Assembly (NCBI GenBank): GCA_965237905.1
Contig: OZ250172.1
Location: 2,461,805 to 2,525,804 of the forward strand
Length of the DNA stretch: 64,000 nt
Direction of reading: 5' to 3'
Origin: Nitrospinaceae bacterium
GTDB taxonomy: Bacteria > Nitrospinota > Nitrospinia > Nitrospinales > Nitrospinaceae
Part shown: positions 7,425-58,275 of the stretch, piece after piece
How the letters are laid out: each line of letters starts with the position of its first letter
Position numbering within the stretch: the stretch's first letter is position 1
Translations under genes and position numbers: made by a program
The notes under the pieces: generated by a model
Told to the model about the DNA's origin: nothing
Seen by the model: only the letters and a program-made list of their open reading frames with translations
The model's database searches: none

Positions 7425-7500
7425 CAGGGGCGTTATGGCGGGATTGATTCGTTACTTTCGCCAGCCGAGGTTTTAAAATTACCTGCGGCGGTTCGCCGCT
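7425..7500 (+). repeat. Copy A of the ~90-bp intergenic repeat family (core ACGGTTTTAAAATTACCTGCGG, terminal hairpin GCGGCG-GTT-CGCCGC)
   Basis: It aligns with the copies at 47436, 50075 and 58180. Confidence 0.75.
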
Positions 7501-7528
7501 TCATCTGTGGTTAATTGGATTGTAGGGT

Positions 7529-7924
7529 ATGCATTTCAGACGCGAACAGGAAGAAAACTATTCACTGGAACTGACGCCCCTGATCGACGTCGTGTTCCTG
7601 CTCCTCATCTTCTTCATGGTATCGACCGCCTTCGTCGACTTTCCACGGCGGATGGATATCACACTGCCCACCTCGAAAGCCGCCAGCGACGACGAAGTGG
7701 TCAAGAACCTCGAGATCGAGATGACCAAAGACAAAAAGATTTATGTCAAGGGACGCCGCATCAGCCTGCAACAGCTCGAGGCCAGTCTCGCCATTCTCAA
7801 GAAACCGCAGGAAGTCAAAACCATCATCCGCGCCGACCAGGACATCGCCTACGGCGACGTCGTCAAAGTCATGGGCCTCCTCCAGGCCGCCAAAGTCACC
7901 GACATCTCCGTCGCCGTCAAATAA
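7529..7924 (+). CDS. exbD: Biopolymer transport protein ExbD/TolR
   Basis: 131 aa with a single N-terminal TM (LTPLIDVVFLLLIFFM) and the ExbD fold signature. Confidence 0.85.
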   Translation: MHFRREQEENYSLELTPLIDVVFLLLIFFMVSTAFVDFPRRMDITLPTSKAASDDEVVKNLEIEMTKDKKIYVKGRRISLQQLEASLAILKKPQEVKTIIRADQDIAYGDVVKVMGLLQAAKVTDISVAVK

Positions 7925-8054
7925 CCCGGTGGACGCATCACCTGCTGGCTCATCCGTTTGCTAGAAGATAAAAAGGGAGATGCTCCTGCGGAGGGAGGAT
8001 TGTTTATTTATTCATTTAAGGATATGATCACCCAACGTTTACGGAGGGGTTACG

Positions 8055-8801
8055 GTGAATACAGGAAGACTCAAACGTTGGATCCAAATCGACTGGGACG
8101 CGATTGCCGGAATCATCGCGGCCCTCATCGCCATCGTGATGCACTACCTGCACTCCCTGGAAGTGGACGTGCTCCTCATGATCGCCCTGGTCCTGCTGGC
8201 GCTTTTGTTTATCCGTGACCTTAGAAGTGAAAGCCGGATGGAAAAGGCCGGTGAAACTCTGCAACGTATCGAAAACTGCGCCCGCGAAATCCAGAGGACC
8301 CTCCATCCCGCGGATGCCCTGCTGATAGGTCCGGCCAATTTGCGTTCGGAAACGGAGCAGTTTGTGCGGCGGGCCAGGGGCGAAATGGTTTGGTTTCATG
8401 TCTGCCCGCTGATGTTCAAAACGCAATTGTTATTCGATGCCCTGCTCAAACCCGCGATCGAAAACCGACAGGTCACCGCTCTCCGGTTTACCTTGGACGT
8501 GGGTCAAAAAGCGGTTTGGGATGCGGAAGTGATGCCCAAAATTCAGAAGTGTGCTGGTGCCCACAAGGTCCAGGCTCCCGCTTGGGTATCCATTGCCGAT
8601 CACGTTTCCTTTATTCTCTCCGACACCGATAAAGAAAAGGAAAAAGAATGCCTGTTGAGTTTTTGGGGCGAGCCGTTCATGTCTGAAAATATCGGGCAAT
8701 CGGTTCCACGTTACATCTTTCATGTTCAGCCGCATTCCGAACTGGTGATGCGATTCGTTGAAATAGAACGGTGTTCCCGCCTGGGAAATACCCAAACCTA
8801 A
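8055..8801 (+). CDS. Hypothetical membrane protein (GTG start)
   Basis: Two N-terminal TM helices, no recognisable domain. It sits where TonB might be expected but is not Pro-rich. Confidence 0.5.
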   Translation: MNTGRLKRWIQIDWDAIAGIIAALIAIVMHYLHSLEVDVLLMIALVLLALLFIRDLRSESRMEKAGETLQRIENCAREIQRTLHPADALLIGPANLRSETEQFVRRARGEMVWFHVCPLMFKTQLLFDALLKPAIENRQVTALRFTLDVGQKAVWDAEVMPKIQKCAGAHKVQAPAWVSIADHVSFILSDTDKEKEKECLLSFWGEPFMSENIGQSVPRYIFHVQPHSELVMRFVEIERCSRLGNTQT

Positions 8802-8880
8802 AGGTCGGGGTGCAGGATCTCCAAGCCGCCCAAGTCACCGACATCTCTGTTGCGGTGAAGTAAAACCTGCTCGAACCTTG

Positions 8881-9159
8881 TTATATGGTCAGAGCTTCCA
8901 GCTTCAAATTCCCTTTGGCCACTTGTTCTTTGACGGGTTTGGAGAGGTTTTTGACAGCGCATTCCACTTTGAGGGCCTGGGAGCGGTTGCCGATTTTCTG
9001 CTGGAACACGAGTGTCAGCGGGCGGCGGGGGCGCAGGTATTTCGATCCCTTCTTGCCCCCTTCCGCATGCTCGGCGAAGCGTCGTTCGACGTCCGTCGCA
9101 ATCCCGGTGTACAGACTGCCGCTCTTCACGCGAATCATATAAAGATGCCATTCGGTCAT
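8881..9159 (-). CDS. GIY-YIG nuclease family protein (UPF0213-like), start MTEWHLYMIR
   Basis: WHLYMIR...GSLYTGIATDVERRFAEH...GAK/SKYLR is a GIY-YIG signature. The RBS ggaagga lies upstream of the internal ATG. Confidence 0.75.
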   Translation of the reverse strand: MTEWHLYMIRVKSGSLYTGIATDVERRFAEHAEGGKKGSKYLRPRRPLTLVFQQKIGNRSQALKVECAVKNLSKPVKEQVAKGNLKLEALTI

Positions 9160-9424
9160 GCGTTGTCCTTCCGGCGAAGCGCCGGTGCTAATTTTTCCCC
9201 TCCTTGCCAAGGAGGGGATACAGGGGAGGTTATGATAACTCCACCCCTCACCTTAATCCATCACCCTGTGGGTGCTTCCCATGAGGGGAGAGGAGATTTT
9301 TGATTTTGCTCCCCCTTGTCGAAGGGTGGCAGGGTGTCGCGCTTTCCTTCGGCAAGCTCAGGACAGGCTAATCGGCTCAGCATGACACCCTATTATGCTT
9401 TCTCAATGGAAATCCGGGATAAAT

Positions 9425-9778
9425 TTATTCGCCGAGGGACTGATGCAGATTGGAGCCGCGGGTGAGAATCCATTCGTTGAGGCGGATCACTTCATCCGGT
9501 TTCAGGAATTGTAACACGTCCTGCGGGGTGGGGTGGTCTTCGTCGTTGATCATGGTGCAGTAGTTGCGCTCGACGAACGCGGCGACGTGCTGTTTGTACT
9601 GGGGAAAGTTCGGGTACAGCTCGCAGAAGATTTCCGCCTGGTACTCCTGGCGGGTATTGTTAGGATCGTAGTGCCGCAGTTTCGGCGTCACTTTCGTCCC
9701 GAATGCCGCTTTGATCAATTCGCCCATGACATAAAACTCCGGAACACGAAGCATGGAATAGGGAACACGGAAAATCAA
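9425..9778 (-). CDS. Hypothetical protein (117 aa)
   Basis: Its RBS AAGGAGGGG is supplied by the palindromic repeat CCCCTCCTTGTTGAGGAGGGG immediately upstream. Confidence 0.5.
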   Translation of the reverse strand: MIFRVPYSMLRVPEFYVMGELIKAAFGTKVTPKLRHYDPNNTRQEYQAEIFCELYPNFPQYKQHVAAFVERNYCTMINDEDHPTPQDVLQFLKPDEVIRLNEWILTRGSNLHQSLGE

Positions 9779-10060
9779 AGTCTCCCCTCCTTGTTGAGGA
9801 GGGGCTGGGGGTGGTGCATAAATTCTTACTTTAACCCATTTATTTTATCAATGTCACCGCAGAGGACAAGAAAATTGTGCCGTTCTGGAGGGAACGCGAA
9901 GCGGGCGAAGGGTCCTGATCTGTCAAGTGCGTGTAAAATAAGAGGTCTTCGGCACCCTGCCGGTACATATTTTACGGGGAAGCGGACCATTTCGCGTTGA
10001 GACGCCACAATTCGGTAGGGAATTTCCATTACCCGGGATATCATGCGGTCTTTATTTTGA

Positions 10061-10190
10061 ACCACCGATGAAGCGGCGAGCCGCCGCTGGCAATTTGGGT
10101 CCAGCGTCACGCTGATCCCCCTCCTTACGAAGGAGGGGTTAGGGGTGGTTGATATCAACCCCTCCCCTTGAAAAGGGGAGGAGTATTTAG
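10061..10190. repeat. Cluster of palindromic repeats: GCGGCGAGCCGCCGC hairpin, GGGTCCAGCGTCACGCTG, CCCCTCCTTACGAAGGAGGGG, GGGGTGGTTGATATCAACCCC, CCCCTTGAAAAGGGGAGG
   Basis: Units of the same families recur at 7399, 9197, 9785, 12505, 23925, 28586, 30345, 41055, 48530, 50061, 50258 and 58168. Confidence 0.8.
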
Positions 10191-10233
10191 TTTTTATCCG
10201 TGTCCATCTGTGTTCATCTGTGGTTAATTTGAT

Positions 10234-11562
10234 TTGTATATGAAGAGAAATACGAAAACTTACCGGAAATACGCCGAGTCGTTGCTGGAGCTCATCGACG
10301 CCAGTCCCACGCCGTTTCACGCGACAAGCGAACTGGCCGCTCTCCTGAAAGCTGAAGGCTTTGCCGAGTTGCAGGAGGCGGACGCCTGGAGTCTGAAAAA
10401 GGGCGGGCGCTATTATGTGACGCGCAACGATTCGTCCCTGGTGGCGTTTGTGATGGGATCGAAGCCGGCGGAGTCGGCCGGATTCAAAATGATCGGCGCG
10501 CACACCGACAGCCCCAATCTGCGCCTCAAACCCAACCCGGCTTACGAAAAATCCGGCTATGTGCAGTTGGGTGTCGAAGTGTACGGCGGTGTGTTGTTGA
10601 CAACGTGGACCGATCGCGACCTGTCCCTCGCCGGGCGGGTGGTTTTGAAATCGAAGCCGGGCCAGCCGGTGTCGCGTCTCCTTAAAATTAACCGACCGTT
10701 GCTTCGCATTCCCCAGTTGGCCATTCATTTCAACCGCGAAGTCAACGACAAGGGACTCAAACTCAACAAGCAGACCCATCTGCCGCCGATTCTACAAATG
10801 GCGGAACAGGATCTTTCTTCCGAGAAAGTGTTGCAGGAGCTGGTGGCGCGCGAGTTGCCATGCCAGGCGGAGGAGATCGTCAGCCTCGATCTGGCATTGT
10901 ACGACGTGCAGGCCTCGACCTTTGCCGGTCCGAATGATGAGTTTGTGTTCGCCCCGCGCCTCGATAACCTGGCGTCCTGCCACGCGGCGACGGTGGCGTT
11001 ACTGGAGGCATCGAAGCAGGATGACGCCACCCGCGTGCTGGCGTTTTACGATCATGAAGAAGTCGGGAGCGAAACCGCGCAGGGCGGCGAGTCGCCGTTT
11101 TTGAAAGATGCATTGGAGCGGATGGTGATGGACTCCGGCAATCCGCGCGAGGCTCTCATGCGGGCGATTGCCCAATCGATTTTCATTTCCGCCGACATGG
11201 CGCACGCCGTGCACCCCAACTATGCCGATAAGCACGAGGATCGGCACCTGCCGCTCATCAACGCGGGGCCGGTGATCAAAACCAACGCCGGGCAGAGGTA
11301 TGCCACCGAGGGCGTATCGAGCGCGCATTTCGAATTGATGAGCCAGCGCGCCGGGGTGAACGTGCAGAAGTTCGTGGTACGGTCCGACATGGGATGCGGG
11401 ACCACGATCGGCCCTCTCACCGCCGCCAACCTCGGCATCCGCACCGTCGACGTGGGCAATCCCATGCTCTCCATGCACTCGATCCGCGAGATGGCCGGGT
11501 CGCAGGACCACGGCGACATGATTCAGGTCTTCAAGGAATATTTTAATGCGGAGAAGGCTTAG
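10234..11562 (+). CDS. M18 family aminopeptidase (aspartyl aminopeptidase-like); probable ATG at 10240
   Basis: GAHTDSPNLRLKP and the downstream metal-binding blocks are typical of peptidase M18. Confidence 0.85.
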   Translation: MYMKRNTKTYRKYAESLLELIDASPTPFHATSELAALLKAEGFAELQEADAWSLKKGGRYYVTRNDSSLVAFVMGSKPAESAGFKMIGAHTDSPNLRLKPNPAYEKSGYVQLGVEVYGGVLLTTWTDRDLSLAGRVVLKSKPGQPVSRLLKINRPLLRIPQLAIHFNREVNDKGLKLNKQTHLPPILQMAEQDLSSEKVLQELVARELPCQAEEIVSLDLALYDVQASTFAGPNDEFVFAPRLDNLASCHAATVALLEASKQDDATRVLAFYDHEEVGSETAQGGESPFLKDALERMVMDSGNPREALMRAIAQSIFISADMAHAVHPNYADKHEDRHLPLINAGPVIKTNAGQRYATEGVSSAHFELMSQRAGVNVQKFVVRSDMGCGTTIGPLTAANLGIRTVDVGNPMLSMHSIREMAGSQDHGDMIQVFKEYFNAEKA

Positions 11563-11828: not shown

Positions 11829-11867
11829 AAGGTTTCCTCTTCCAAAAAATTGTTGCCTGACGTTTGA

Positions 11868-12488: not shown

Positions 12489-12608
12489 TCACCCTTGGCA
12501 AGCCTCCTGCCCGGAGGGGGAAGGTTAAATCGGTGTCATACTGAGCTTGTCGAAGTATGGCACCGTGTCGCCCTTCGACAGGCTCAGGGCGACACGGTTA
12601 CGCCTTTG

Positions 12609-13394
12609 CTAATTTTCCTCCGGGCGTGGCCCGGCCCAGTAGCGGCCGTTGTTTTTATGGAGCGTCAAGGGATGCCCCAGCGCCTGCGACAGGATTTTAT
12701 CTTGAAGCATGGAGTCCTTGTTTCCCTGACGGAAGATTGTTCCGTCTTTGAGGTAGAGGACGTGGGTGATGGCGGGGAGGATTTCTTCGATATGATGCGT
12801 GACGTAAATCATCTGGGTTTTTCGGGAGAGCTTCTGCAGGGTTTCGAGGAAGCGCTCGCGCGTGGGGATATCAAGTCCGGCGCAGGGTTCGTCGAGGACC
12901 AGCAGGGTGGGGCGGTGGACCAGCGCCCGCGCCAGCAGAACCCGCCGGGCTTCACCGTAGGACATACTGCGGAACCGTTTTTGGCCCAGGTTCTCGATTT
13001 CCAGAAGATGCATACACTCTTCGGCCCGCTGTTTCTGCCGGGCGTTGACTTTCTGCCAGAGCCCGATACTGGCGAAGAAGCCCGATTCCACCACTTCCAG
13101 ACCGGTTACATTCCGGTCGTAGTTTTCCTGGTATTCGGCGGAGACGTAACCGACCTGATCGCGGATGTCTGCCAGTCCGTTCCAGGTTCGGCTGTTGAAC
13201 CAGTGTACCGTACCACCGTCGACGGGCAGTAGTTCGCCGAAGATGAGTTTCAACAGAGTGGTTTTGCCGGAACCGTTGTTGCCGACCAGCGCCCAGTGTT
13301 CGCCGGGGTGGACGGTCCAGTCGATAGACTTCAGGACGGGCGTGTCTTTCAAATAAACAGTGGCATTTTTGATCTGAACCAGAAAAGCGCTCAT
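12609..13394 (-). CDS. ABC transporter ATP-binding protein (orphan ATPase)
   Basis: Walker A GNNGSGKTTLLK, signature LSYGEARR, Walker B LLVLDEP. Confidence 0.85.
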   Translation of the reverse strand: MSAFLVQIKNATVYLKDTPVLKSIDWTVHPGEHWALVGNNGSGKTTLLKLIFGELLPVDGGTVHWFNSRTWNGLADIRDQVGYVSAEYQENYDRNVTGLEVVESGFFASIGLWQKVNARQKQRAEECMHLLEIENLGQKRFRSMSYGEARRVLLARALVHRPTLLVLDEPCAGLDIPTRERFLETLQKLSRKTQMIYVTHHIEEILPAITHVLYLKDGTIFRQGNKDSMLQDKILSQALGHPLTLHKNNGRYWAGPRPEEN

Positions 13395-15780: not shown

Positions 15781-16356
15781 TTATTTGCCCCGGACTTTCT
15801 TGTTGGCTTCAATCAAGATTGTAATATGGTCCCGGCAGAATTCCTGGATTTTCTCCCTGACCATGAGTAGGGCGATTTTACCGGGGGTTGTGAACCCGCC
15901 GGGGATGTCGGGCAGGGATTCTTTGGCAGAACCCTCTTCAAGGTCTTTGCACCGTTTCAAAATTTCCTTATCATCATAAAGGTCTTCCAGCGGATAACTG
16001 TAATGGAGTTTGACGTATTCCCTTTCCTTCTCTGTTTCCTTTTTGGAATCCCAGATGATATTTTCTCTTTCAATCGAAGTCGGCTTTTTCTTTTGAGCGT
16101 TGATGACTTTTTTGATTGCCTGAAAGTAGGTCTGCATCTCCTTTTCTGAGGAGAGCTCATCTTGAGGGATTTTGGAGCTGATTTCAAATTCCAGGCTGTT
16201 GTCGTGCAACACCGGTCGGCTGATCTCGTAGGTGATGTCGTTTTGGTTGAACCGCCGTCCCTTTTTGGGTTTGTATTTGCTTTGCATCTCTTCGATCAAT
16301 TGACTCAAACCCTCGCCTGCGTATTGATTGAACAAAATTCCTTTTAAACTCGCCAT
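15781..16356 (-). CDS. Hypothetical protein (191 aa, Lys/Glu-rich), low-GC gene
   Basis: No recognisable domain. Local GC is about 42%. Confidence 0.5.
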   Translation of the reverse strand: MASLKGILFNQYAGEGLSQLIEEMQSKYKPKKGRRFNQNDITYEISRPVLHDNSLEFEISSKIPQDELSSEKEMQTYFQAIKKVINAQKKKPTSIERENIIWDSKKETEKEREYVKLHYSYPLEDLYDDKEILKRCKDLEEGSAKESLPDIPGGFTTPGKIALLMVREKIQEFCRDHITILIEANKKVRGK

Positions 16357-23918: not shown

Positions 23919-24040
23919 ACGTTCCCCTCCTTTTTAAGGAGGGGCCGGGGGTGGTTTTCCTTCATCTGTTTCCTTATTTGCCCCAAGTTTTGCACCCGCC
24001 GATCTGCTACAATACGACTCGTTTTCGATCATAATATAAA

Positions 24041-25735
<1,695 letters not shown>

Positions 25736-25895
25736 GGTTAAATGGAGTGCCTTATTAATCACCAAACCTTCAATATAAATCATGCGTATCCCAAATTTCT
25801 TTTTGGGATAGATGTAGCCTATTAGGGATGTGTTTACGGACAAAACACGGATAATTTTGCGGATCAAAGGTGGGCACTCATAAATCGGCTTGGTT

Positions 25896-26855
25896 CTACA
25901 GTTTGTCTGTATACTCCTTTAATTTAGTCATGATTTCATCAAATCCAGGCTGGGTTTTATAGTAAAGAGCATTTGTATTTTGGAAGGCCTCCTCGTATTG
26001 TTTACGGGTGGTTGGGTCGTTTAAGAAAAAAGCTTCATTTTCTGCAATAAGAGGGTTATCGCTGGAACGGAAACGTTTCTTCTTATGAGCCTGATACTCG
26101 GCCGTTCCAATGAAATTCTGGACCTCTGGCTCATGAAGCAAGCAGTAAACATCATAGTAGTGACGCATGAAATTATCCGGAAATGATTCGTTTTCCTGCT
26201 GGGTACGGTATTTGGTGGAAATGGTTTGTAGCTTTTCCACTAGTGTATAGCCTGGATGATAGCAGGGGACTTCTTTAGCGCGGTTATCCACTACCTCCAC
26301 CTTGTCCGCTGCATAATCATAGGCCCATGAACTGATGTCTTTGGATATATTCGGTGCTATATCATCAAACCCTACTTCCAGCAAGATGCCATCCTTTAAG
26401 CCGGTCAAAGGGCCTGCCATGTTTTTGTAGTTCAAGCGGATTCCACCACTACGATATTTTTCATCGTCGTATTCTTTATCGCGCCAGACTTTTTCGATTC
26501 CGTCGATGGTAATGGTGTTCGCCAACCAGTCATAAAAATCTTCCCGACTTTTACAATGTGCAGTCTTATTCTGGTTACGACCAATCTTTACATTCATGCT
26601 TACAGGTGGTTGAATATGGATATCAATATCCTCTGAAAAGCGGTTGATGATTCCATATCCCTTGGAAAGGGAGGTGCCACCTTTAAGCTCAAAGGTTAGG
26701 CTCATCTGTTGTAATTCGTACAGGCAATGCATGATCCAGTAATCTTTCTCTATAAGAGCTGGATCAATGGAGTGTTCCTCACCGACAATGCGGATCAGAT
26801 CGGGGAAGTTTGTATGATTATGAAGGTAGTTATGCAGCATACTGCAATTTAGCAT
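25896..26855 (-). CDS. AbiEii/AbiGii-family nucleotidyltransferase toxin (DUF1814), type IV TA / abortive infection
   Basis: KGGTSLSKGYGIINRFSEDIDI is the AbiEii nucleotidyltransferase motif. It overlaps the upstream AbiEi gene by about 10-25 nt. Confidence 0.75.
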   Translation of the reverse strand: MLNCSMLHNYLHNHTNFPDLIRIVGEEHSIDPALIEKDYWIMHCLYELQQMSLTFELKGGTSLSKGYGIINRFSEDIDIHIQPPVSMNVKIGRNQNKTAHCKSREDFYDWLANTITIDGIEKVWRDKEYDDEKYRSGGIRLNYKNMAGPLTGLKDGILLEVGFDDIAPNISKDISSWAYDYAADKVEVVDNRAKEVPCYHPGYTLVEKLQTISTKYRTQQENESFPDNFMRHYYDVYCLLHEPEVQNFIGTAEYQAHKKKRFRSSDNPLIAENEAFFLNDPTTRKQYEEAFQNTNALYYKTQPGFDEIMTKLKEYTDKL

Positions 26856-27426
26856 CCCCCAGCGCTTCGGCAAAGAATTTCCTTGCTCGTACCCCACCAT
26901 ACTGACGTACTGCCCTTAAGAGTGCTTGTCTGTTAGCGGATGTAGCCTTTTCCTTTACTCGCTCCATCACCTTAGCCTGATTTTCTGCTAACTGTTCCAG
27001 ATTATTCACGAGATCAACTAAAAGGAATTCATGGCTGAGCGATTTCGGGAAATGAGGTTTTACTCGGAAGTCAAATACGCGCCCGCCTAGCTTAAAGCGT
27101 CCATGCCGTTTGTTATTATAAACAACGGTTTCATTGTAAAGTTGCGTTGTCCCGACACTCAGCGTGTTATAGGCATTGGCTGAGGTCAGAAGAAACCGGT
27201 TGTCTTTCAAAAAAGCCTCGACTAGTTTTTCATCTTCTGCCGGGGCCTCACCAAAGGCGGTTTTCTTCGGGCAGTAATAGAGCCCGCCGGAAAGCTTAGT
27301 CAGCGTTCCATCTTCTTGCAACTGCCGTAAATGACGGTCCACGGCATTCGACCAATCCGAAAGTTCGGCTCGCCGGTACACCCGTCCGGGGCGTAGATGT
27401 TTTTTAACTTCGTTCAATTTTGACAT
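26830..27426 (-). CDS. AbiEi-family antitoxin / transcriptional regulator
   Basis: 198 aa. It lies immediately upstream of the AbiEii gene and overlaps it, and the N-terminal region is AbiEi_4-like. Confidence 0.6.
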   Translation of the reverse strand: MSKLNEVKKHLRPGRVYRRAELSDWSNAVDRHLRQLQEDGTLTKLSGGLYYCPKKTAFGEAPAEDEKLVEAFLKDNRFLLTSANAYNTLSVGTTQLYNETVVYNNKRHGRFKLGGRVFDFRVKPHFPKSLSHEFLLVDLVNNLEQLAENQAKVMERVKEKATSANRQALLRAVRQYGGVRARKFFAEALGDAKLQYAA

Positions 27427-27669
27427 GGCTGTTTACCTCGCTTTCTAATATAGCCAAAAACTAGAGAAATAGCAAGTATTTTTATTTAAAAATCATGCAA
27501 ATTATTCAAAAGATACAAATATTTCAATAAATTAGAGATATTTAATTAGTTATAAATATTCCCTTTGAAAAGTAACCTAGCTTTAATATTAGAATTTGGG
27601 ACAAAAACCATGGATGTTTAAGAAGGTATTTATGTGCAGGAAATTGTATTTGTAAGGCAAGAAGAGGGT

Positions 27670-27781
27670 GGGGTTGACAGCCGGATGGGCTACTTCATCG
27701 CCGACCAAAAGGACAGCAAGCCCGGCTCCCCCATCTTCAACTGCACCACCCCTCTCTGCGACATCTGGGCCAAGGTTCAAA
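27670..27781 (+). pseudogene. Displaced 3'-terminal fragment of glnS (last ~35 codons, about 80% nucleotide identity to 25624-25735)
   Basis: Direct alignment within this window. Confidence 0.8.
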
Positions 27782-27862
27782 AGGAGGGATAAGAATTTTT
27801 TTCGTAAAGAAGAAAAGAGAAGGAAGAAAAGGGGGAGATCACAATGGTCTCCCCCTAACTTT

Positions 27863-28141
27863 TTAAGAATAAGCGTATTGGGTGTGTTGTCTTAACCATT
27901 CCCAAGCTTTTTCCGGAAGCCACCCATCAAACTCGTTGGTAACACCGATAACTAAAAAGTGATCGTTATCATCCGTGGTTTTTCTGAGGTGGTCGCGAAT
28001 CTGAGTAGCATTAAGATCAGCTTTTACTAACCATGTTGAATCAAGGTAATGCCACCAGATTCCCAGTTCTTTAATGGCCTCATAAAGGTCATCATAGTTT
28101 TGACCGGGTTTGTTAAGGTCGTACGAAATTAGATAAACCAT
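27863..28141 (-). CDS. Small Cas2/VapD-fold-like protein (92 aa, tentative)
   Basis: YLISYDL...NYDDLYEAIKELG..WHYLDSTWLV resembles the N-terminus of VapD/Cas2 endoribonucleases; this is from memory. Low-GC gene. Confidence 0.35.
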   Translation of the reverse strand: MVYLISYDLNKPGQNYDDLYEAIKELGIWWHYLDSTWLVKADLNATQIRDHLRKTTDDNDHFLVIGVTNEFDGWLPEKAWEWLRQHTQYAYS

Positions 28142-28174
28142 TTTATTATGCTCCTAAGAGGGAGTTCAAGTTTT

Positions 28175-28242
28175 CCCTCTTGACAAAGGAGCCTAGCCCA
28201 GGTAAATTCCGGGTGCGAAAAAGGATCTCTTTTGTCAAGAGG
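28175..28242. promoter_or_regulatory. 12-bp inverted repeat CCTCTTGACAAA ... TTTGTCAAGAGG (about 40 bp apart) in the promoter region of the 92-aa gene
   Basis: Perfect inverted repeat seen in the sequence. Candidate operator. Confidence 0.4.
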
Positions 28243-28450
28243 TTCCAAGTATTTGAAGGATCATGCCTTGCGGCGTGGTCCTTCTTTTTTGCCTAAAACA
28301 CACATCACAATATGATGGATTATCCCGGATTATGACTACCAGCCGTTGTGGTGTCAATGCTTAAATTTATTGGATCTTAAGCCTTTTAATTTCAAATATT
28401 TATGCTTGTTGGTCCGGAGGGTAAGTTGTAACATTTTGGTTTTGTGTAGT

Positions 28451-28597
28451 TTATAGGGAGTTTTTGAGGCGTTCGATAGTTCGTTGTTTCCCCAGCAGTA
28501 GCACGACATCAAATATGCCGGGGGAGGCGGTTTTGCCGGTGAGGGCGACGCGGACGGGCTGGGCGAGTTTGCCGAGCTTCAATCCGGCTTCCTCGCC
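28451..28597 (-). pseudogene. Displaced 3'-terminal fragment of gltX (about 90% identical to 28880-29010; encodes ...[16 protein letters not shown])
   Basis: Direct alignment with the intact gltX 3' end, which encodes ...LLLGKQKTVERLGSAVHIIGTSKK*. Confidence 0.75.
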
Positions 28598-28648
28598 TCT
28601 CCTTGGTAATGGGAGGGAAATTTAGCTCCGGCGCTACGCCGGTCCAGC
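28586..28648 (+). repeat. Composite three-hairpin element (CCTCTCC..GGGAGGG; CCGGCG-cta-CGCCGG; GTCCAGCGTCACGCTGG), left copy
   Basis: The same arrangement in the same orientation occurs at 30345-30409 on the other side of gltX. Confidence 0.75.
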
Positions 28649-28845
28649 GTCACGCTGGTCGGTGGCTCACTGTTCTTCCGGTTTGGGTGGGTCTCTTCTT
28701 TCTTCGGCTTTCGGTTTTTTCTGGTCGCCAATAACGGTTTTGAGCGGACAGGCCTTGAATATCGGACACTTTTCACAGCCGACGGCCAAAGCAACAGGAC
28801 ACAGGGTCATGGGTCTCACCTCCTCTTCTTGATAGGGGTAGGGGC

Positions 28846-30270
28846 TTATTTTTTTGAGGTGCCTATAATATGGACCGCCGACCCTAACCTTTCCACTGTT
28901 TTTTGCTTCCCCAGCAGTAACACGACGTCAAATATACCGGGAGAGGCGGTTTTGCCGGTGAGGGCGACGCGCACGGGTTGGGCGAGTTTTCCGAGTTTCA
29001 ATCCGGCTTCCTCGACGGTCTGCTTGAACAGGGCTTCGACGGCGTCGTGGTCCAACGGTTCCTCCATGGTTTCCAATCCTGCCACCAGTTTGTCGAGCAG
29101 GGGCTTCACTTCCGGCGTTAAAAATTTCGCTTTCGCCTTCTCGTCAAACGTCACTTCATCCTTCAAATAAAACTCGGCACCGTGGGCCATCTCGATCAGC
29201 GTTTTGGCGCGTTGCTGGAGCGACGGGATGACTTTCACGAGATCGTCTTTCGATTTACCGTGCGCTTCCGGCAGGATATCTTCCTGAATCAAAGCCGCTT
29301 CGAAGGCATCGACCAGTTCTTCCGGCGTCGATTTCTGAATCCACTGCTCGTTAACCCATAACAATTTCTCCGGATTGAACACCGCGGCGGAGATGGTGAC
29401 GTGCTCCAGTGAGAAATGCTTGATCATTTCCTGCTGTGTGAACAGTTCCTGATCGCCATGCGACCAGCCGAGGCGCGCCAGAAAATTGATCAATGCGTCG
29501 GGCAGAAAACCCATGTCGCGGTAGGCGAGGGTGGCCGTCGCGCCGTGGCGTTTCGACAACCGGGTTTTGTCGGCGCCGAGGATCATGCTGAGATGCGCGA
29601 ACTGCGGGCGCGGGAAATTGAGGGCGTCGTACATCAGCGCCTGGCGCGGCGTGTTGGACAGATGGTCGTCGCCCCGGATGACGTGGCTGATACGCATATC
29701 GGCGTCGTCCACCACCACCACGAAGTTATAGGTCGGCGTGCCGTCGGTGCGCAGGATGATGAAATCGTCGAGCTCTGCCACGTCGAATTCCACGTTGCCG
29801 CGCAGGAGGTCTGCAACCACCACGTTGCCCGTCGGCGGACATTGGAAGCGCACGACGTGCGGCGCATCCGGTTGGTCCTTACGGCCGCGGCAGGTGCCGT
29901 CGTATTTCGGTTTTTCCTTTTTGGCCTGGGCGGCTTTACGTTTGGCTTCCAGATTTTCCGGCGAGCAGTAACAGCGGTAGGCTTTGCCCTCGTTCAGCAA
30001 CTGGTCGACTTTAGTTTTATAGAGACTTTGCCGCTCCATCTGGCGGAACGGCCCCTCGTCCCAGTCGAGCCCCAGCCACTGCATCGACTCGATGATTTCC
30101 TGAATGGAGTCCTCGGTGGAGCGTTCGTGGTCGGTGTCCTCGATCCGCAAAATAAACTTGCCTTTATGGTGGCGCGCGAACAGCCAGTTGAACAGGGCGG
30201 TGCGCACCCCGCCGATATGCAGGAATCCGGTAGGGCTGGGGGCGAAACGGACGCGTACTTCTTCAGTCAT
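28846..30270 (-). CDS. gltX: Glutamate--tRNA ligase
   Basis: PSPTGFLHIGGVRTALFNW (HIGH), KMSKS-region equivalents, 474 aa. Confidence 0.95.
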   Translation of the reverse strand: MTEEVRVRFAPSPTGFLHIGGVRTALFNWLFARHHKGKFILRIEDTDHERSTEDSIQEIIESMQWLGLDWDEGPFRQMERQSLYKTKVDQLLNEGKAYRCYCSPENLEAKRKAAQAKKEKPKYDGTCRGRKDQPDAPHVVRFQCPPTGNVVVADLLRGNVEFDVAELDDFIILRTDGTPTYNFVVVVDDADMRISHVIRGDDHLSNTPRQALMYDALNFPRPQFAHLSMILGADKTRLSKRHGATATLAYRDMGFLPDALINFLARLGWSHGDQELFTQQEMIKHFSLEHVTISAAVFNPEKLLWVNEQWIQKSTPEELVDAFEAALIQEDILPEAHGKSKDDLVKVIPSLQQRAKTLIEMAHGAEFYLKDEVTFDEKAKAKFLTPEVKPLLDKLVAGLETMEEPLDHDAVEALFKQTVEEAGLKLGKLAQPVRVALTGKTASPGIFDVVLLLGKQKTVERLGSAVHIIGTSKK

Positions 30271-30344: not shown

Positions 30345-30409
30345 CCCCCTTCCTGAAGGGGGAGCATATTACCTCCGGGCGTTGCCCGGTTGGGTCCAGC
30401 GTCACGCTG
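30345..30409 (+). repeat. Composite three-hairpin element (CCCCCTTCC..GAAGGGGGAG; CCGGGC-gtt-GCCCGG; GGGTCCAGCGTCACGCTGG), right copy
   Basis: Direct repeat of 28586-28648. Confidence 0.75.
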
Positions 30410-30686: not shown

Positions 30687-31271
30687 ATGGAAACCTGGTG
30701 GGCCGAATTAACGACGACGTTAAGAGTATTCTGGGGACTCGCGATCTTTTCGACCGTGTTTTTTGTTTTGCAGACGATTATGACCTTCGCTGGTCTTTCG
30801 GATATGGATTCGGATATGGATTCGGACATGGATTCGGACAGCGATGCCGGGGGTCACGATGCGCACTCGATGATGGACTATTTTACGGTGCGGAATCTGG
30901 TGTCCTTTTTCCTGGGTTTTTCCTGGTGCGGCATCGTACTGATCGAAGGCGGCTCATCCCTGGGGGTCGCCATCGCCGGCGGAACAGTGATGGGGCTGGT
31001 GTTGGTCAGCATCACGATGCTGATCCTCAAGACTCTGTCTTCTCTGAAAAGCCAGGGGAACTTGTCGCTGGACAACGCGATCGGCCATGAGGGTCTCGTG
31101 ACTATCACCATCCCTGCCGACCAAAAACATTACGGTAAGATAGGAATCTCCTTTCAGAACCGGTACCGGGAACTGGAGGGGATTTCCAAGGAGCAACAGG
31201 AATTGGCCAAGGGGACGCGGGTGAAAGTGGTGGCTATTTCCGGTAATCAACTTGTGGTGAAATCCGTTTAG
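30687..31271 (+). CDS. NfeD-like membrane protein (short form, OB-fold C-terminus) with an acidic DMDSDMDSDMDSDSD tandem repeat
   Basis: Membrane helices plus a C-terminal beta-barrel-like region. It is cotranscribed with the flotillin gene. The repeat is encoded by 12-bp tandem repeats at 30802-30849. Confidence 0.6.
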   Translation: METWWAELTTTLRVFWGLAIFSTVFFVLQTIMTFAGLSDMDSDMDSDMDSDSDAGGHDAHSMMDYFTVRNLVSFFLGFSWCGIVLIEGGSSLGVAIAGGTVMGLVLVSITMLILKTLSSLKSQGNLSLDNAIGHEGLVTITIPADQKHYGKIGISFQNRYRELEGISKEQQELAKGTRVKVVAISGNQLVVKSV

Positions 31272-47023: not shown

Positions 47024-47446
47024 ATGGGTTATAAAAATCCGATTCCGGCGGTCGATCTCATTATTGAAATTGAGGGTAAAGGTCTGGTGCTGATTGAGCG
47101 GCTCAACCCGCCTCCGGGTTGGGCGTTGCCGGGCGGATTCGTGGAGGTTGGCGAATCCCTGGAGCAGGCGGCTGTCCGCGAAGCCAAAGAGGAGACCTGT
47201 CTGGATGTGGAACTGCTGGGGCAGTTTCATACCTATTCCGACCCCAATCGGGACCCCCGCATGCATTGCATTTCAACCGTTTTTGTAGCCAGGGCGACAG
47301 GAACGCCGAAGGCGGAGGATGATGCCAAATCCGTCGCCCTGTATCCCAAAGACCAGCTTCCGGATATCCTGGCATTTGACCACCGGAAAATTCTGGAGGA
47401 CTATCTGAACTCCCCCTGGCTCCTGCCCGGAGGGGGAAAGGGCTGA
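47024..47446 (+). CDS. NUDIX hydrolase
   Basis: Nudix box [24 protein letters not shown]. The last 8 codons and the stop lie inside the repeat ...CCTGCCCGGAGGGGGAAAGGGCTGACCGG. Confidence 0.85.
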
Positions 47447-47520
47447 CCGGAAACGGCCAGAGAGAATCCTTGGAGCGCAATTTACGGTTTTAAAATTACC
47501 CGTGGCGGTTCGCTACCCAG
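47436..47520 (+). repeat. Copy B of the ~90-bp repeat family (GGCTGACCGGAAACGGC ... ACGGTTTTAAAATTACCCGTGGCGGTTCGCTAC)
   Basis: It aligns with copies A, C and D. Its terminal hairpin GTGGCG/CGCTAC has one mismatch. Confidence 0.75.
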
Positions 47521-47543
47521 GCAAGGTCCGGAGCTAATTCTTT

Positions 47544-48613: not shown

Positions 48614-49987
48614 TTAAGGAGCAGAAGATTGCAATTCCTGAAGTTTCTTTTGGGCCTCAGGGTGTTGCGGATCCATCTGCAAAATGATTTCCAACTCTTT
48701 GATCGCCTGACTGCGTCTGCCTTTTTTGAGATAGATTTCATGCAGTTTCCAGTGCAGGGATAAAAAGTCCACCCCCTTTTGCACGGCGGTATGGAAGGCC
48801 TTCTCGGCTTCATCCAGATTCCCCACCCCAAAATGAGCGTTCCCCAGGTTGAAATAGGCCACCGCGAACTCGGGATCGAGCGACAGCGCCTTTTTTAAAT
48901 GGGGCAAGGCCTGCTTCGACTGCCCCAGTTTGTTGAGAGCGGCTCCCAGGTTGGACAGTGCCTGGATGAAATTGGGATACACTTCGATGGCCCGGCGAAA
49001 GTGAGCCACTGCTTGTTTCACGTTACCCTTCCGGAAATATTGTCCCCCCAGGTTGGACAGGGCTTCCGGGAACCGGGGATTGATTTTCAAAACTTTTTCA
49101 TATTCCGCAATGGCCTTGTCGACTTCTCCCAACCCCCGGTAAGTGACTGCCAAGTCGTACCGGGCCAGCACAAAGTTCGGATCGATTTTGAGAGCGCGTT
49201 GATACAGGTCGATAGCCCGGTCGGTTTCCCCGAGCGCATACAGGGCGAAGTTGCCCTGGTAGTAGAGAGCTTCCTTGGATATTTTATCCGCCTGCAGCAA
49301 TTGCTTGAAGGTCATTAGTGTTTGATCGTTCAGGTGAGGCTTGACGGTGTTAATCGGTAATGCCAGATTAATGGACCGGCCTTCCAGCGTGGCCACCCCC
49401 ACCACTTGGTTATTCTTGTTGACCAGCGGGCCGCCACTGAATCCCGGCTGGAATGGGGTGGTGTTGTAGATAAATGAAAACTCCGGAAGCGCCTGCGGAT
49501 GGATTCCCAGAATGAACCCGTAAGTTTGGAGAAGAGCCCCTTTCAATCCACCGCGCTCCATTTGCACGGCCTGGGAGGGATAACCCAGGGCGCGGGTATA
49601 ATCGTATTCCTTCAGCCGGTCCGAGTCGCCAATTTCCAGAGTGGAATACAGATCGCCTTCCAGCTTGATAATGCTGAAATCCCGGCTCCGGTCGACGCTC
49701 ACCACCCCTTGCACCGGCACCCGGTCGCCGTTGGGAAAAATGGCTTCCACCGATACCGCATCCACCAACACATGATAGTTCGTGATCAGCGTGCCATCGG
49801 GTTTCACGATAAATCCGGTTCCCGTCCCGAGGGTTTGCCCTTTGTCTCCCTTGGTGACCAGCAGGACAATGGCATTTTTGTTGACCTCGTGGCTCAGCGC
49901 GACGGACGGCTGGAGCAGAAACACGGCAACCAGCGCCAGAAACCAGAGAGCAGGGCGATAAAATTTCGATTCAGGCAATACCTGCAT
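48614..49987 (-). CDS. Trypsin-like (S1) serine protease fused to C-terminal TPR repeats, secreted
   Basis: GTGFIV...H, D and GFSGGPL catalytic triad blocks, then 6-7 TPR units. Confidence 0.75.
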   Translation of the reverse strand: MQVLPESKFYRPALWFLALVAVFLLQPSVALSHEVNKNAIVLLVTKGDKGQTLGTGTGFIVKPDGTLITNYHVLVDAVSVEAIFPNGDRVPVQGVVSVDRSRDFSIIKLEGDLYSTLEIGDSDRLKEYDYTRALGYPSQAVQMERGGLKGALLQTYGFILGIHPQALPEFSFIYNTTPFQPGFSGGPLVNKNNQVVGVATLEGRSINLALPINTVKPHLNDQTLMTFKQLLQADKISKEALYYQGNFALYALGETDRAIDLYQRALKIDPNFVLARYDLAVTYRGLGEVDKAIAEYEKVLKINPRFPEALSNLGGQYFRKGNVKQAVAHFRRAIEVYPNFIQALSNLGAALNKLGQSKQALPHLKKALSLDPEFAVAYFNLGNAHFGVGNLDEAEKAFHTAVQKGVDFLSLHWKLHEIYLKKGRRSQAIKELEIILQMDPQHPEAQKKLQELQSSAP

Positions 49988-50060: not shown

Positions 50061-50160
50061 CCTCCTCCCCGGAGGGGGAATTGGCTGACCGGTAACGGCA
50101 ACCGTGAATTACTGAGCGCAACTCACGGTTTTAAAATTACCTGCGGAGGTACTCCGCCGT
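50061..50160 (+). repeat. Copy C of the ~90-bp repeat family, preceded by the palindrome CCTCCTCCCCGGAGGGGGAA (GGCTGACCGGTAACGGCAACCGTGAATTACTGAGCGCAACTCACGGTTTTAAAATTACCTGCGGAGGTACTCCGCC)
   Basis: Internal hairpins AACCGTGA/TCACGGTT and GCGGAG/CTCCGC. Confidence 0.8.
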
Positions 50161-50312
50161 CAACCAGGGGTTTTCACAAAAAACCCTCTTCCAAATAGGA
50201 AGCACCCGCAGGGTGACGGGCTGGGTGAGGGGTGGTGTCATCTTAATCTTCCCTGTATCCCCTCCTCGATAAGGAGGGGACCAGGGAGTATCCTCTGGGT
50301 GAGGATAAAAGC

Positions 50313-50729
50313 TTACTTCACGTTGACGATCACCGTTGCCGTAATCGGCGGATTGTAGGGAACATGATTCCCTTTGGCGAACAGAGCGCGGATGACATGG
50401 ATACCGGCATTCAGCTTCACTTCCTTGCACGTGGAGCCGTCGCCCATATGGATATGCTGGGCGTCTTTGCCGATAGCTTTGCCCAAATCCTTGGGCAGAT
50501 CTGTGTCGACCAGAATGTGATGATGGCCACTTCCGTCATTCACACCTTTCTTAGCGGGTTCTACCGTTACACCATGAGTGACCATGCATACCTTAACCGG
50601 GCTGGAAACGGTCACGCCATTGGCCGGCTCGGAGATGGCAATCGCACGGGTTCCCGCCAGAGCGGTGGAAATGCTGAAAACCAGCAGGGTCAACAAAAGG
50701 GCACTCAGTTTCAAAAACAATTTGTTCAT
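50313..50729 (-). CDS. DUF4399-like secreted protein (138 aa)
   Basis: Signal peptide and a GSGHHHILVD motif. Family call from memory. Confidence 0.5.
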   Translation of the reverse strand: MNKLFLKLSALLLTLLVFSISTALAGTRAIAISEPANGVTVSSPVKVCMVTHGVTVEPAKKGVNDGSGHHHILVDTDLPKDLGKAIGKDAQHIHMGDGSTCKEVKLNAGIHVIRALFAKGNHVPYNPPITATVIVNVK

Positions 50730-53414: not shown

Positions 53415-53433
53415 TTCAAGGAGGCCGCTGGTT

Positions 53434-54030: not shown

Positions 54031-54077
54031 AAACAGGGGTTTTTGCTCTCCCTGGAACCCACTATTTTTAAAATAAC

Positions 54078-56714: not shown

Positions 56715-56759
56715 GCCTCCGTTCGTAATTTCCCTTTTGCTGAAACCAGGTGTTTCCCC

Positions 56760-58097
56760 ATGCCGGACTTTCAAAACACTCTCGACCGGTTTTTCAACAT
56801 TAGCGAAAACCGGAGCACGGTGGGGACTGAGGTGCGGGCGGGCCTGGTCACATTTTTGACCGCGTCCTACATCATTTTTGTGCAACCCGCTATCATGGCG
56901 CAGGTGGGGATGGATTTCGGCGCAGTGATGACCGCCACCTGCATCGCCTCCGCTATCGGTTGTCTCATTATGGGCCTGTGGGCGAATTACCCGATTGCCC
57001 TGGCGCCGGGGATGGGAATCAATTTTTATTTCACGTTTACGGTGGTGATGGGGCAGGGTATCAGTTGGCAGGTCGCTTTGGGAGCGGTGTTTCTTTCGGG
57101 CATCGGCCTCATCCTGCTCACCCTCCTGCGGTTCCGCGAAGTCATCATCAACAGTATCCCGGAAGGCCTGAAGATCGGCATCGCCGCCGGCATCGGCCTG
57201 TTTATCGCCTTCATCGGATTGGTGCAAGGCGGATTAGTGAAGGGCCACCCGGGCACGCTCGTTCAGCTTGGATCTCTGAAGAGCCTGCCCGCCCTGTTCA
57301 CCCTCGGGGGAGTCATCCTGATCGCCACCCTCCTGCAAAGGAAAATCAAGGGAGCCATCCTGATCGGCCTAGTCGTCATGGCGGCTCTCGGCCTTCCACT
57401 GGGACTGGTCCAGTACCAGGGATTGTTATCAGCGCCGCCCAGTCTCGGCCCGACCTGGATGCAACTCGATATTCTGGGCGCTCTGGATTTGGGACTGCTC
57501 ACCATCGCCGGAGTGTTCCTGTTCGTGGATTTGTTCGATACCGCCGGGACGCTGGTGGGGATAGGGCATCAGGGCGGATTTTTGAGGGACGGCAAACTGC
57601 CGCGGGCCCGCAAGGCATTGATGCCGGATTCGGTCGGCACCACGGCCGGCGCCATGCTCGGCACCTCGACGGTCACCTGCTACATCGAAAGCGCCGCCGG
57701 CGTGGCCGAAGGGGGGCGCACCGGTCTGGCCAGTGTGGTCACAGCCCTGTTGTTTCTTTTGGCGCTGTTGTTTTCGCCGCTGGCGCGAATGATCGGTGGC
57801 GGCTATTCACCCACGGAAGGGGTTACGCTGTATCCCATCACCGCACCGGTGCTGATCATCATCGGGAGCATGATGGCGGCCAATGTCGCCCGCATTCATT
57901 GGGGCCAGTGGGACGAATCTCTCCCTGCGTTTCTGATTCTCATCGGGATGCCGCTGACCTACAGCATCGCCGATGGCATGGCACTGGGGTTCATTGCCTA
58001 TCCGATCATCAAACTCCTGTGCGGCAAGGTCCGGCAGGTGCACTGGTGTATGTGGGTCATCGCCCTGATGTTTGTTGCGCGCTACCTGACCCTTTAA
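56760..58097 (+). CDS. NCS2-family (AzgA-like) purine permease
   Basis: 445 aa with about 12 TM helices and conserved NCS2 N-terminal blocks. Confidence 0.85.
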   Translation: MPDFQNTLDRFFNISENRSTVGTEVRAGLVTFLTASYIIFVQPAIMAQVGMDFGAVMTATCIASAIGCLIMGLWANYPIALAPGMGINFYFTFTVVMGQGISWQVALGAVFLSGIGLILLTLLRFREVIINSIPEGLKIGIAAGIGLFIAFIGLVQGGLVKGHPGTLVQLGSLKSLPALFTLGGVILIATLLQRKIKGAILIGLVVMAALGLPLGLVQYQGLLSAPPSLGPTWMQLDILGALDLGLLTIAGVFLFVDLFDTAGTLVGIGHQGGFLRDGKLPRARKALMPDSVGTTAGAMLGTSTVTCYIESAAGVAEGGRTGLASVVTALLFLLALLFSPLARMIGGGYSPTEGVTLYPITAPVLIIIGSMMAANVARIHWGQWDESLPAFLILIGMPLTYSIADGMALGFIAYPIIKLLCGKVRQVHWCMWVIALMFVARYLTL

Positions 58098-58167
58098 TTT
58101 CCAGGGGCCAAACGGCCCTTCGACCTGTGGTATACTTCCCCAAATAGCCAATTATCTTATGAATTCG

Positions 58168-58275
58168 CCGCCCTCTAGCGAGGGAGGCAAATGGCTGACG
58201 GTTAACGGCAAGCGTTGACTATAGGGTGCAGTTCAAGGGTTTTAAAGTTACCAGCGGAGGCACTCCGCTTTTTTC
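58168..58275 (+). repeat. Copy D of the ~90-bp repeat family, preceded by the palindrome CCCTCTAGCGAGGGAGG; its terminal hairpin AGCGGAG-gca-CTCCGCT plus T6 forms a plus-strand terminator
   Basis: GGCTGACGGTTAACGGCAAGCG ... GGGTTTTAAAGTTACCAGCGGAGGCACTCCGCTTTTTT. Confidence 0.8.

Follow-up and report, generated by a model that had tools for sequence, protein, structure and literature searches.

The 64,000-nucleotide (nt) stretch of Nitrospinaceae DNA analyzed here (hereafter the window) contains four copies, A to D, of a short intergenic repeat, all on the + strand and at the places where the original prediction had put them. Copy A (positions 7399 to 7499) lies between exbB and exbD, copy B (47420 to 47516) between a NUDIX hydrolase gene and an M28 peptidase gene, and copy D (58167 to 58269) between an NCS2 permease gene and a gene for an LRR protein. 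Copy C (50061 to 50157) is antisense to both of its neighbors, a TPR/trypsin protease gene that starts at 49987 (-) and a DUF4399 gene whose stop is at 50313 (-). The genes flanking the four copies are functionally unrelated, and all copies sit in spacers, with any overlap of genes limited to their last codons. The true unit is about 100 nt long, longer than the 90 bp first reported, as it includes an upstream hairpin.

The window NCS2 permease is 94 to 95% identical to metagenome proteins in ENA/JGI and 76 to 77% identical to those of Nitrospina gracilis and Nitrospina watsonii, and the comparison of ExbB agrees with this picture. These identities place the window in an uncultured lineage of Nitrospinaceae. 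Contigs of relatives, labeled L001 to L023, were gathered in two ways. One exact-pattern scan each of the GTDB species genomes and of the JGI metagenomes, with the terminal hairpin left free, gave nine stretches, including three chance matches (L001, L002, and L005) and a duplicate of L003 (L008); the true relatives (L003, L004, L006, L007, and L009) were on Nitrospinota DNA only. Homologous proteins led to syntenic contigs around the permease gene (L010 to L016) and around exbB (L017 to L022), and L023 was taken from N. watsonii.

The basic module of the repeat is about 30 nt long: a hairpin rich in GC, whose stem has 6 bp and whose loop has 3 nt, is joined to an AT-rich tail that reads AAAATTA[C/G]C[T] on one side, equivalent to AG[C/G]TAATTTT on the other. 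The bases adjoining the stems are ACC[T/C/A] or AGC[T/A]. In the element, two modules, H1 and H2, form an inverted doublet, tail to tail, on either side of a middle of 45 to 60 nt, such that the 5′ module, H1 plus AG[C/G]TAATTTTGC, corresponds in inverted orientation to the 3′ module, GGTTTTAAAATTACCT plus H2. About 22 doublets, in addition to solo modules, were counted in about 250 kb of Nitrospinaceae DNA, part of which is redundant. R1, a covariance model built on X-type copies (see below) over their full length, recovered all full-length copies at 88 to 110 bits and weaker relatives at 17 to 40 bits. A model of the 3′ module alone, R2, matched 5′ modules on the opposite strand, at 10780 to 10815 (28.7 bits) and 10907 to 10942 (33.5 bits) in L019 and at 15967 to 16002 in L017, and 5′ modules, in reverse complement, and solo modules aligned gap-free to 3′ modules.

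An upstream palindrome, initially seen before three copies, precedes all four, with CCAGCG-TGA-CGCTGG in copy A. It is part of the repeated unit: copy D and L003 share an H1 variant, CCCTC-TAGC-GAGGG with an outer 3-bp stem, at non-orthologous sites; CTCCT.CCCGGAGGGGG is likewise common to B, C, and L006a. This shared variant, the matches of R1 to all copies, and the existence of empty sites bear out the earlier suggestion of a composite mobile unit that includes the palindrome.

In copy A, a Y-type doublet, the loop of H1 (7399 to 7413) is the exbB stop codon, and H1 is followed by the tail ACTCAATTTTGC (7414 to 7425), the Y-type middle (7426 to 7468), the core (7469 to 7483), and H2, GCGGCG-GTT-CGCCGC (7485 to 7499). 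The other three copies are X-type doublets. Copy B, 3′ of the NUDIX gene, comprises H1, CTCC-TGCCC-GGAG (47420 to 47432), the motif GGCTGAC (47441 to 47447), the core (47486 to 47500), and H2, GTGGCG-GTT-CGCTAC (47502 to 47516). Its H2 had been listed as a one-mismatch variant and is in fact fully paired through a G-T (G-U in RNA) wobble. The corresponding parts of copy C are H1, CCTCC-TCCCC-GGAGG (50061 to 50075), the core (50127 to 50141), and H2, GCGGAG-GTA-CTCCGC (50143 to 50157). Copy D, 3′ of the NCS2 permease gene, starts with H1, GCC-G-CCCTC-TAGC-GAGGG-A-GGC (58167 to 58188), and ends with the core (58238 to 58252) and H2, AGCGGAG-GCA-CTCCGCT (58253 to 58269), after which comes a T tract (58270 to 58275).

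The core common to the four copies is GGTTTTAAA(A/G)TTACC, and a stem of 6 to 7 bp with a 3-nt loop starts one base past each core. The 15-mer GGTTTTAAAATTACC is found exactly at 7469, 47486, and 50127 and with one mismatch at 58238. The core is thus not invariant, as had been stated: copy D has an A>G change, and the bases ahead of GG differ among copies. With up to three mismatches allowed, the window holds nine core matches, compared with 1.98 ± 1.61 in shuffled sequences, and none of 100 shuffles reached nine. A search with the core alone cannot favor structure, and we used it to test the link between core and hairpin. At up to two mismatches it gave 14 matches, 13 of them real, and a hairpin was present at offset 0 to 1 in 12 of the 13; the fourteenth, at 2567 in L022, is a chance match.

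The stem beyond the core changes in sequence while its pairing is kept, as originally proposed. Over 21 copies, drawn from the window and from contigs of related Nitrospinaceae, 96.0% of H2 cells are paired, compared with 75.1 ± 2.5% when the letters of the 3′ stem were shuffled in 500 rounds. Cells with changes on both sides number 22, against 6.3 in the shuffles, none of which reached the observed value; the covariation score is 0.518 versus 0.131 after shuffling, and slid-register controls gave pairing of only 40 to 58%. At least six stem sequence classes keep their pairing, and those of H2 include GCGGCG, GTGGCG, GCGGAG, GCGGTG, CCGGGC, CCGGCC, and CGGAC. In an alignment of H1 and solo modules, whose members were picked by eye, 97.9% of cells are paired versus 75.7% in shuffles, with 17 double changes versus 5.1. 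The covariation of the H2 stem is real, and selection on the hairpin structure is supported, with an excess over shuffles in H2 as well as in H1 and the solo modules.

Folding as single-stranded DNA (ssDNA) or as RNA gave H1 and H2 as separate local hairpins, and the core was unpaired in all folds. Within one element, H1 and H2 belong to different sequence classes. Wobble and mismatch counts were indecisive between the strands and between RNA and ssDNA. Among eight X-type sequences, the internal helices are invariant or changed on one side only; their consensus fold has an energy of −20.9 kcal/mol and a structure conservation index (SCI) of 0.62 on the + strand, against −12.7 kcal/mol and 0.36 on the − strand, an advantage that is only suggestive at this sample size. 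The central hairpin said to be shared by the copies is not consistently conserved. Another candidate, CCG-GNAA-CGG in the 5′ motif, was set aside as not conserved, being limited to B, C, and L007.

Three subfamilies, X, Y, and W, have common ends and different middles. The X subfamily (GGCTGAC.G..AACGGC ... G.GCGCA) comprises B, C, D, L003, L004, L006a, and L009, and the Y subfamily (...GGCG.GAT...CTTTCGCCAGCC) comprises A, L019, L010, L015-E, L018a, and L017b. The GGCTGAC motif reported as common to the four copies is thus present in B, C, and D and missing from A, which belongs to the second subfamily and whose 5′ half differs from theirs. Within the window, the 5′ motif GGCTGACCGGTAACGGCAA at up to two mismatches occurs only in B, C, and D, with 0.02 matches expected. 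In the W subfamily (L017, L020, and L021), another dispersed repeat is nested inside the element. This repeat, GTCATTCTGAGGAGCGAAGC.../CCTGTCCTGAGCTTG(T/C)CGAAGG, was seen at 10810 to 10860 in L017, at 12535 to 12600 in the window, and at approximately 4497 to 4520 in L004; it lies mid-element both in W-type elements and in a divergent copy at 12502 to 12638 of the window.

A comparison of relatives, of the kind that had been recommended, showed copies to be present, absent, or swapped at sites A to D and at a further insertion site, E. Site D is filled only in the window. It is empty in L010 to L016, in which the model had no match there (the sequences read directly were those of L010, L011, L014, L015, and L016). 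The empty site of the two closest relatives, L015 and L016 (95% protein identity), consists of a 22-nt native stem-loop and then TTTTAT. In the window, the element is found in place of the native stem-loop and abuts the same T tract. Homology to the TTTTAT of that empty site identifies the T6 run after copy D as native. H2 of copy D together with this native terminator flank scores as an intrinsic terminator, so the terminator that had been attributed to the element owes its hairpin to the element and its T tract to the resident sequence. A U tract is found at copy D only.

At site E, L015 and L016 carry an element in the opposite orientation, which takes the place of 15 native bases, and the window, L010, and L014 are empty. 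The element was thereby shown to take the place of a resident hairpin at two sites. Between 15 and 22 nt of native sequence are lost at D and E, and target-site duplications are absent from both filled/empty pairs. L010 has no element at site B. At site C, where the window has an X-type copy, L010 joins a Y-type 5′ half to the 3′ module found in the window, and L014 has nothing beyond a Y-type 5′ half. At site A, the N. watsonii spacer measures 3 nt and L022 lacks an element; the copy is of the Y type in the window and L019 and of the W type in L017, L020, and L021. L017 and L019 are 99.5% identical in exbB/exbD and yet carry a W-type and a Y-type element, respectively, and turnover therefore extends down to the strain level.

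No shared motif was visible in the 5′ flanks of nine sites. A Pfam scan of 60 window open reading frames (ORFs), nearly all of the 64 non-overlapping ORFs of at least 70 amino acids with a few short ones left out, found no transposase, RAYT (REP-associated tyrosine transposase, REP being repetitive extragenic palindromic sequences), or other Y1 enzyme domain, and no transposase was seen in the gene tables of the relatives' loci.

The position of the copies relative to genes is biased. Of 17 independent sites, 11 have an element that runs in the direction of the gene ending beside it, and in 7 of these 11 the element overlaps the stop codon; at three others it is antisense, and at three it lies in a divergent region or behind another element. 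Of the sites that adjoin a gene end, about 11 of 14 are co-directional with the upstream gene, and most copies sit after a gene, not before one. The antisense copies are C, L015-E, and L006b, and the copies in divergent promoter regions are L004 and L022a. At copy B, the NUDIX frame crosses H1 and ends at the TGA of GGCTGAC (47444 to 47446), with its last 8 to 9 residues encoded by the element; the NUDIX end is different in the empty B allele of L010. A uniform orientation with replication, as for IS200/IS605-type elements, was rejected, since three copies, L009, L015-E, and L017b, have the inverse orientation within the same syntenic 60 kb.

Promoter scans gave no consistent site upstream of the copies. 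A sigma-70 reading of TAAAAT in the core was abandoned for want of a conserved −35 element at 16 to 18 nt, and inspection of TGGCTGAC... for sigma-54 found no −12 GC. A mini-ORF, xTG-GCT-GAC-NGN-TAA behind GGAGG, is not conserved: the B lineage has no start codon, and three copies have CTG in that position. Likenesses to dif/Xer sites, attC sites, DNA uptake sequences, and hammerhead ribozymes were dropped by eye because the defining motifs are missing.

Where copies are retained, they are constrained. The three orthologues of copy B (window, L007 2840 to 2943 [-], and L014 842 to 945) are 88 to 92% identical over 97 nt without gaps. By comparison, third codon positions are 62 to 68% identical in the flanking NUDIX and M28 genes and 61 to 62% identical in the permease gene, and ordinary spacers are about 71% identical; the excess for the B orthologues has a P value of about 2e-8. 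B and C, which are paralogues in the same genome, are 83 to 86% identical, below the identity of the orthologues. As orthologues are closer than paralogues, concerted evolution is not the cause of the similarity. Judged from these alignments, retained copies are under purifying selection.

At the gathering score, Rfam found only two tRNAs in the window, in adjacent genes at 3880 to 3951 and 3989 to 4060 (-). No Rfam match was obtained around A, B, and D at E values up to 1, and around C no match with an E value up to 10 reached the gathering score. A weak match that overlaps C is to the Pseudomonas small RNA P36 (18.2 bits versus a gathering score of 36; E = 0.35), and the lowest E value near C, for whalefall-1 (20.8 bits versus 37; E = 0.0057), is at 50255 to 50306, downstream of the copy. 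The models of the repeat had no match in the 20.8-kb exbB-exbD locus of N. watsonii, and literature searches found no paper on such repeats in Nitrospina. The repeat family is real and previously undescribed.

We propose that the copies are probably lineage-specific interspersed palindromic repeats, akin to REP sequences and bacterial interspersed mosaic elements (BIMEs), of an uncultured Nitrospinaceae clade. This interpretation is based on the many copies at unrelated loci, with inverted ends, interchangeable middles, and solo modules, and on their gain, loss, and swapping at the strain level without target-site duplications. Among the three candidates offered by the original prediction, the REP type fits best, and the emphasis placed there on structured RNA is supported only in part. 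The modules would be copied or exchanged as DNA. This might involve a trans-acting, hairpin-recognizing Y1/HUH enzyme of the RAYT or IS200/IS605 type encoded elsewhere, for which RAYTs are a precedent (PMC3116915, PMC3337134). Alternatively, it might involve recombination between hairpin modules, which would also be compatible with the replacement of native hairpins and the swapping of H1 modules. The proximity to stop codons, the orientation bias, the terminator at D, and the constraint on retained copies suggest that the element is transcribed together with the upstream gene. Its stem-loops could then act as 3′-end structures in termination or attenuation, or in protection against exonucleases; at D, H2 and the native T tract would form a canonical terminator. 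The copies probably serve as, or are at least tolerated as, 3′ stem-loops.

Several observations weigh against this proposal. The window ORFs scanned and the gene tables of the relatives' loci yielded neither a RAYT nor another Y1 enzyme. The loss of 15 to 22 native nt at D and E is not predicted by known HUH transposition, and H1 and H2, which are of different classes, do not form the single end-to-end hairpin of REP doublets forming hairpins (REPINs). The census is small and its contigs are partly redundant, and some of the hairpins were chosen by eye. Finally, the sequence constraint on orthologues would also be expected of a functional RNA, and the invariant X-type motifs (GGCTGAC.G..AACGGC and G.GCGCA), the better + strand fold, and the orientation bias fit such an RNA as well.

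These last points lead to the possible, though unlikely, alternative that the element is primarily a cis-acting structured RNA of 3′ untranslated regions (UTRs) and intercistronic spacers, which would control termination, read-through, mRNA stability, or translation termination of the upstream gene, dispersal being secondary. The placement of H1 at the stop codon or beside it in 7 of the 11 co-directional sites would agree with such a role, as would the prevalence of co-directional copies at gene ends, the G-U pairs in the internal helices of the better-folding + strand, the constraint on orthologues, and the terminator at D. However, three copies are antisense and two are in divergent promoter regions, the only U tract is that at D and is native, and the internal helices are invariant or changed on one side in the eight sequences available. 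Furthermore, the whole middle is replaced between subfamilies, the element type is swapped between strains that are 99.5% identical, and Rfam gave no match. A riboswitch or leader function was rejected, because the flanking genes are unrelated, C is antisense to both neighbors, and most copies follow genes; that subfamilies share their ends and not their middles also argues against a riboswitch-like regulator. The unrelated loci, together with the modular ends and the gain and loss of copies, point to a repeat family and away from the dedicated attenuating element that had been considered. We regard as improbable a further reading, in which a stop-codon- or terminator-proximal cassette replaces a resident stem-loop, is exchanged among strains by a hairpin-directed mechanism other than RAYT, IS200, or DDE transposition, and is kept by purifying selection because its + strand RNA sets 3′-end formation or translation termination of the upstream gene. 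The transcribed + strand of this cassette would present H1, a conserved ACNGNNAA loop, an exposed AU-rich core, and H2, and would sometimes supply the stop codon.

A role at the DNA level is rated lower again. In BIME-1 elements, a conserved AT-rich center lies between two palindromes, and a nucleoid protein or gyrase could likewise bind the AT-rich core of the present element, which would be kept for chromosome organization as in BIME-1/RIP of Escherichia coli. The similar layout, the unpaired state of the core in all folds, and the conservation of the core and the X-type motif in sequence and not in structure would be in keeping with this, but inspection found no match to the integration host factor (IHF) consensus WATCAANNNNTTR, and compensatory changes in the stems favor an intrastrand hairpin over recognition of a duplex. 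A classical miniature inverted-repeat transposable element (MITE), with terminal inverted repeats and target-site duplications and mobilized by a DDE transposase, would account for the imperfect inverted-repeat ends and the variable middle; it is very unlikely, as neither of the two filled/empty pairs has a target-site duplication, native bases are lost instead, and no related insertion sequence was seen. Least probable of all is a family of trans-acting small-RNA genes. The copies are multiple, structured, and conserved, and their exposed AU-rich segment might serve as a seed. Nevertheless, they lack a consistent promoter-like site upstream and a terminator other than at D, they lie within operons and overlap stop codons, and they are polymorphic between strains; the unrelated neighbors, the antisense copy, and the absence of an Rfam match also speak against the small-RNA family of the original prediction.

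The REP/BIME-like interpretation can be set against known systems. Like the REP and BIME sequences of Enterobacteria, the present repeats are short, GC-rich, imperfect palindromes that lie, in the copies seen, in extragenic positions, single or alternating around conserved nonpalindromic motifs; they form mosaics with other modules, show compensatory stem changes and no target-site duplications, and are located at gene 3′ ends and in operon interiors. The AT-rich center between two inverted palindromic units recalls the protein-binding center of BIME-1. Unlike REP/BIME sequences, they belong to another phylum and have no sequence similarity to them. They have a 6-bp hairpin with a 3-nt loop and an AAAATT tail, lack the GTAG-type tetranucleotide 5′ of the REP palindrome, and overlap stop codons very frequently.

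Similarities extend to the REPIN/RAYT system of Pseudomonas, whose elements are nonautonomous doublets of inverted palindromic units of about 90 to 105 nt, with a copy-variable spacer, singlets beside doublets, extragenic locations, and no target-site duplications (PMC3116915, PMC3337134). REPIN doublets can be conserved for long periods, as copy B is here. Unlike the complementary ends of REPINs, which form one long hairpin, H1 and H2 fold apart, and a REPIN-type long hairpin did not form in ssDNA or RNA folds. Miniature elements derived from IS200/IS605 also have subterminal hairpins, no long terminal inverted repeats, no target-site duplications, and a variable interior. Their end hairpins, however, are on the same strand and in the same orientation, whereas the present modules are inverted, and their insertion is clean and 3′ of a fixed tetranucleotide, whereas here no target motif common to the sites is visible and the element takes the place of native bases. 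Correia/NEMIS elements of Neisseria and ERIC elements of Enterobacteria are comparable in being intergenic units of 100 to 150 nt that are co-transcribed, alter mRNA 3′ or 5′ ends, and are polymorphic among strains, but their long terminal inverted repeats, and the TA duplications of Correia elements, are missing here.

Beyond the four copies, the window carries further members of the family, and solo modules and other hairpin repeats occupy spacers near elements. A divergent relative at 12502 to 12638 (+), with model scores of 28 and 31.4 bits, has an H1, GCCTCCTGCCCGGAGGGGG, identical in type to that of B and C, a long middle with the other nested repeat, a degenerate core, CTTTGCTAATTTTCC, and H2, CCGGGC-GTG-GCCCGG, at 12620 to 12634 (+). 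A minimal doublet at 10073 to 10115 (-) has neither middle nor core and consists of tCAGCG-TGA-CGCTGG, ACCCAAATTGCCA, and GCGGCG-GCT-CGCCGC. TTCATC(T/G)GTGGTT follows H2 both in this doublet and in copy A. Solo modules are found on the + strand at 9171 to 9196 (CCGGCG-AAG-CGCCGG, then TGCTAATTTTT); in the opposite orientation at 28614 to 28646 (AAATTTAGCT, then CCGGCG-CTA-CGCCGG; 24.5 bits), adjoining a hairpin CCAGCG-TCA-CGCTGG; and at 30366 to 30393 (ATATTACCT, CCGGGC-GTT-GCCCGG, then the hairpin CCAGCG-TCA-CGCTGG; 20 bits). A decayed hairpin-plus-tail module at 47517 to 47543 (+), CCAGGC-AAG-GTCCGG followed by AGCTAATTCTTT, reaches the ATG of the M28 peptidase gene, and the module at this site is intact in L014 (CCGGGC-AAG-GCCCGG, then AGCTAATTTTTT).

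Other repeats were noted as well. A separate palindrome family, CCCCTCCTT-N4-AAGGAGGGG, whose arms are anti-Shine-Dalgarno and Shine-Dalgarno sequences, shares spacers with the modules and is present at 9195 to 9217, 9782 to 9804, 10116 to 10138, 23922 to 23944, and 50257 to 50279; its copy at 9195 adjoins a module at 9195 to 9245 that is 92% identical to 2721 to 2771 of L007. A leader-like repeat, CATCTGTGGTTAAT(T)TG(G)ATT..ATG, lies directly 5′ of exbD (7501 to 7528) and of an M18 aminopeptidase gene (10205 to 10233), and also at approximately 10850 to 10885 in L022. The space that separates a methyltransferase gene from an SBF transporter gene in L006 contains two diverged elements (6792 to 7000), which stand head-to-head with a common or overlapping H1 region, GGCCGGGCAGGGCCCGGCC, and together make up a larger palindromic cluster. 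In this lineage, intergenic DNA is built as a mosaic of palindromic modules.

Some features of the window are unrelated to the repeats. Three tandem DUF3015 paralogues (1594 to 2157, 2200 to 2721, and 3120 to 3668, all -) correspond to a single gene in L017, L022, and L023 and are a lineage-specific amplification. In a Lnb_N/DUF7843/DUF7840 gene (within 2 to 1501), an in-frame TAA at 953 to 955 (-) splits what is one ORF of 601 to 665 amino acids in relatives; the split gene is either a pseudogene or a sequencing error. The region from 25625 to 29014, between glnS and gltX, contains an AbiEii toxin gene (25896 to 26900, -) and an overlapping upstream ORF (26830 to 27426). It is flanked by partial duplicates of the 3′ ends of both genes, glnS and gltX (25625 to 25736 versus 27682 to 27793, 79% identity; 28472 to 28595 versus 28891 to 29014, 89%) and looks like an inserted defense or toxin-antitoxin island. 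Lastly, about four copies of a 12-nt tandem repeat, TTCGGATATGGA, are present at 30797 to 30844, in or near an ORF at 30687 to 31271.

Nitrospinaceae are the main marine nitrite oxidizers, and most of their genomes are fragmented metagenome-assembled genomes (MAGs). L016 begins inside an element copy (13 to 28 in L016; 645 to 750 in L015), which suggests that the repeats break metagenome assemblies of this clade; if dense, the family would explain contig breaks in these MAGs. It would also explain the inflated spacers of tight operons, such as that between exbB and exbD (120 to 200 nt, compared with 3 nt). The repeats change the C-termini and stop codons of core genes and provide a strain-level marker in a phylum without previously described REP-like elements. 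The contrast between turnover among 99.5%-identical strains and conservation across a silent-site divergence of roughly 35% makes the family a tractable test case for whether REP-like repeats are parasites, domesticated 3′-end signals, or both.

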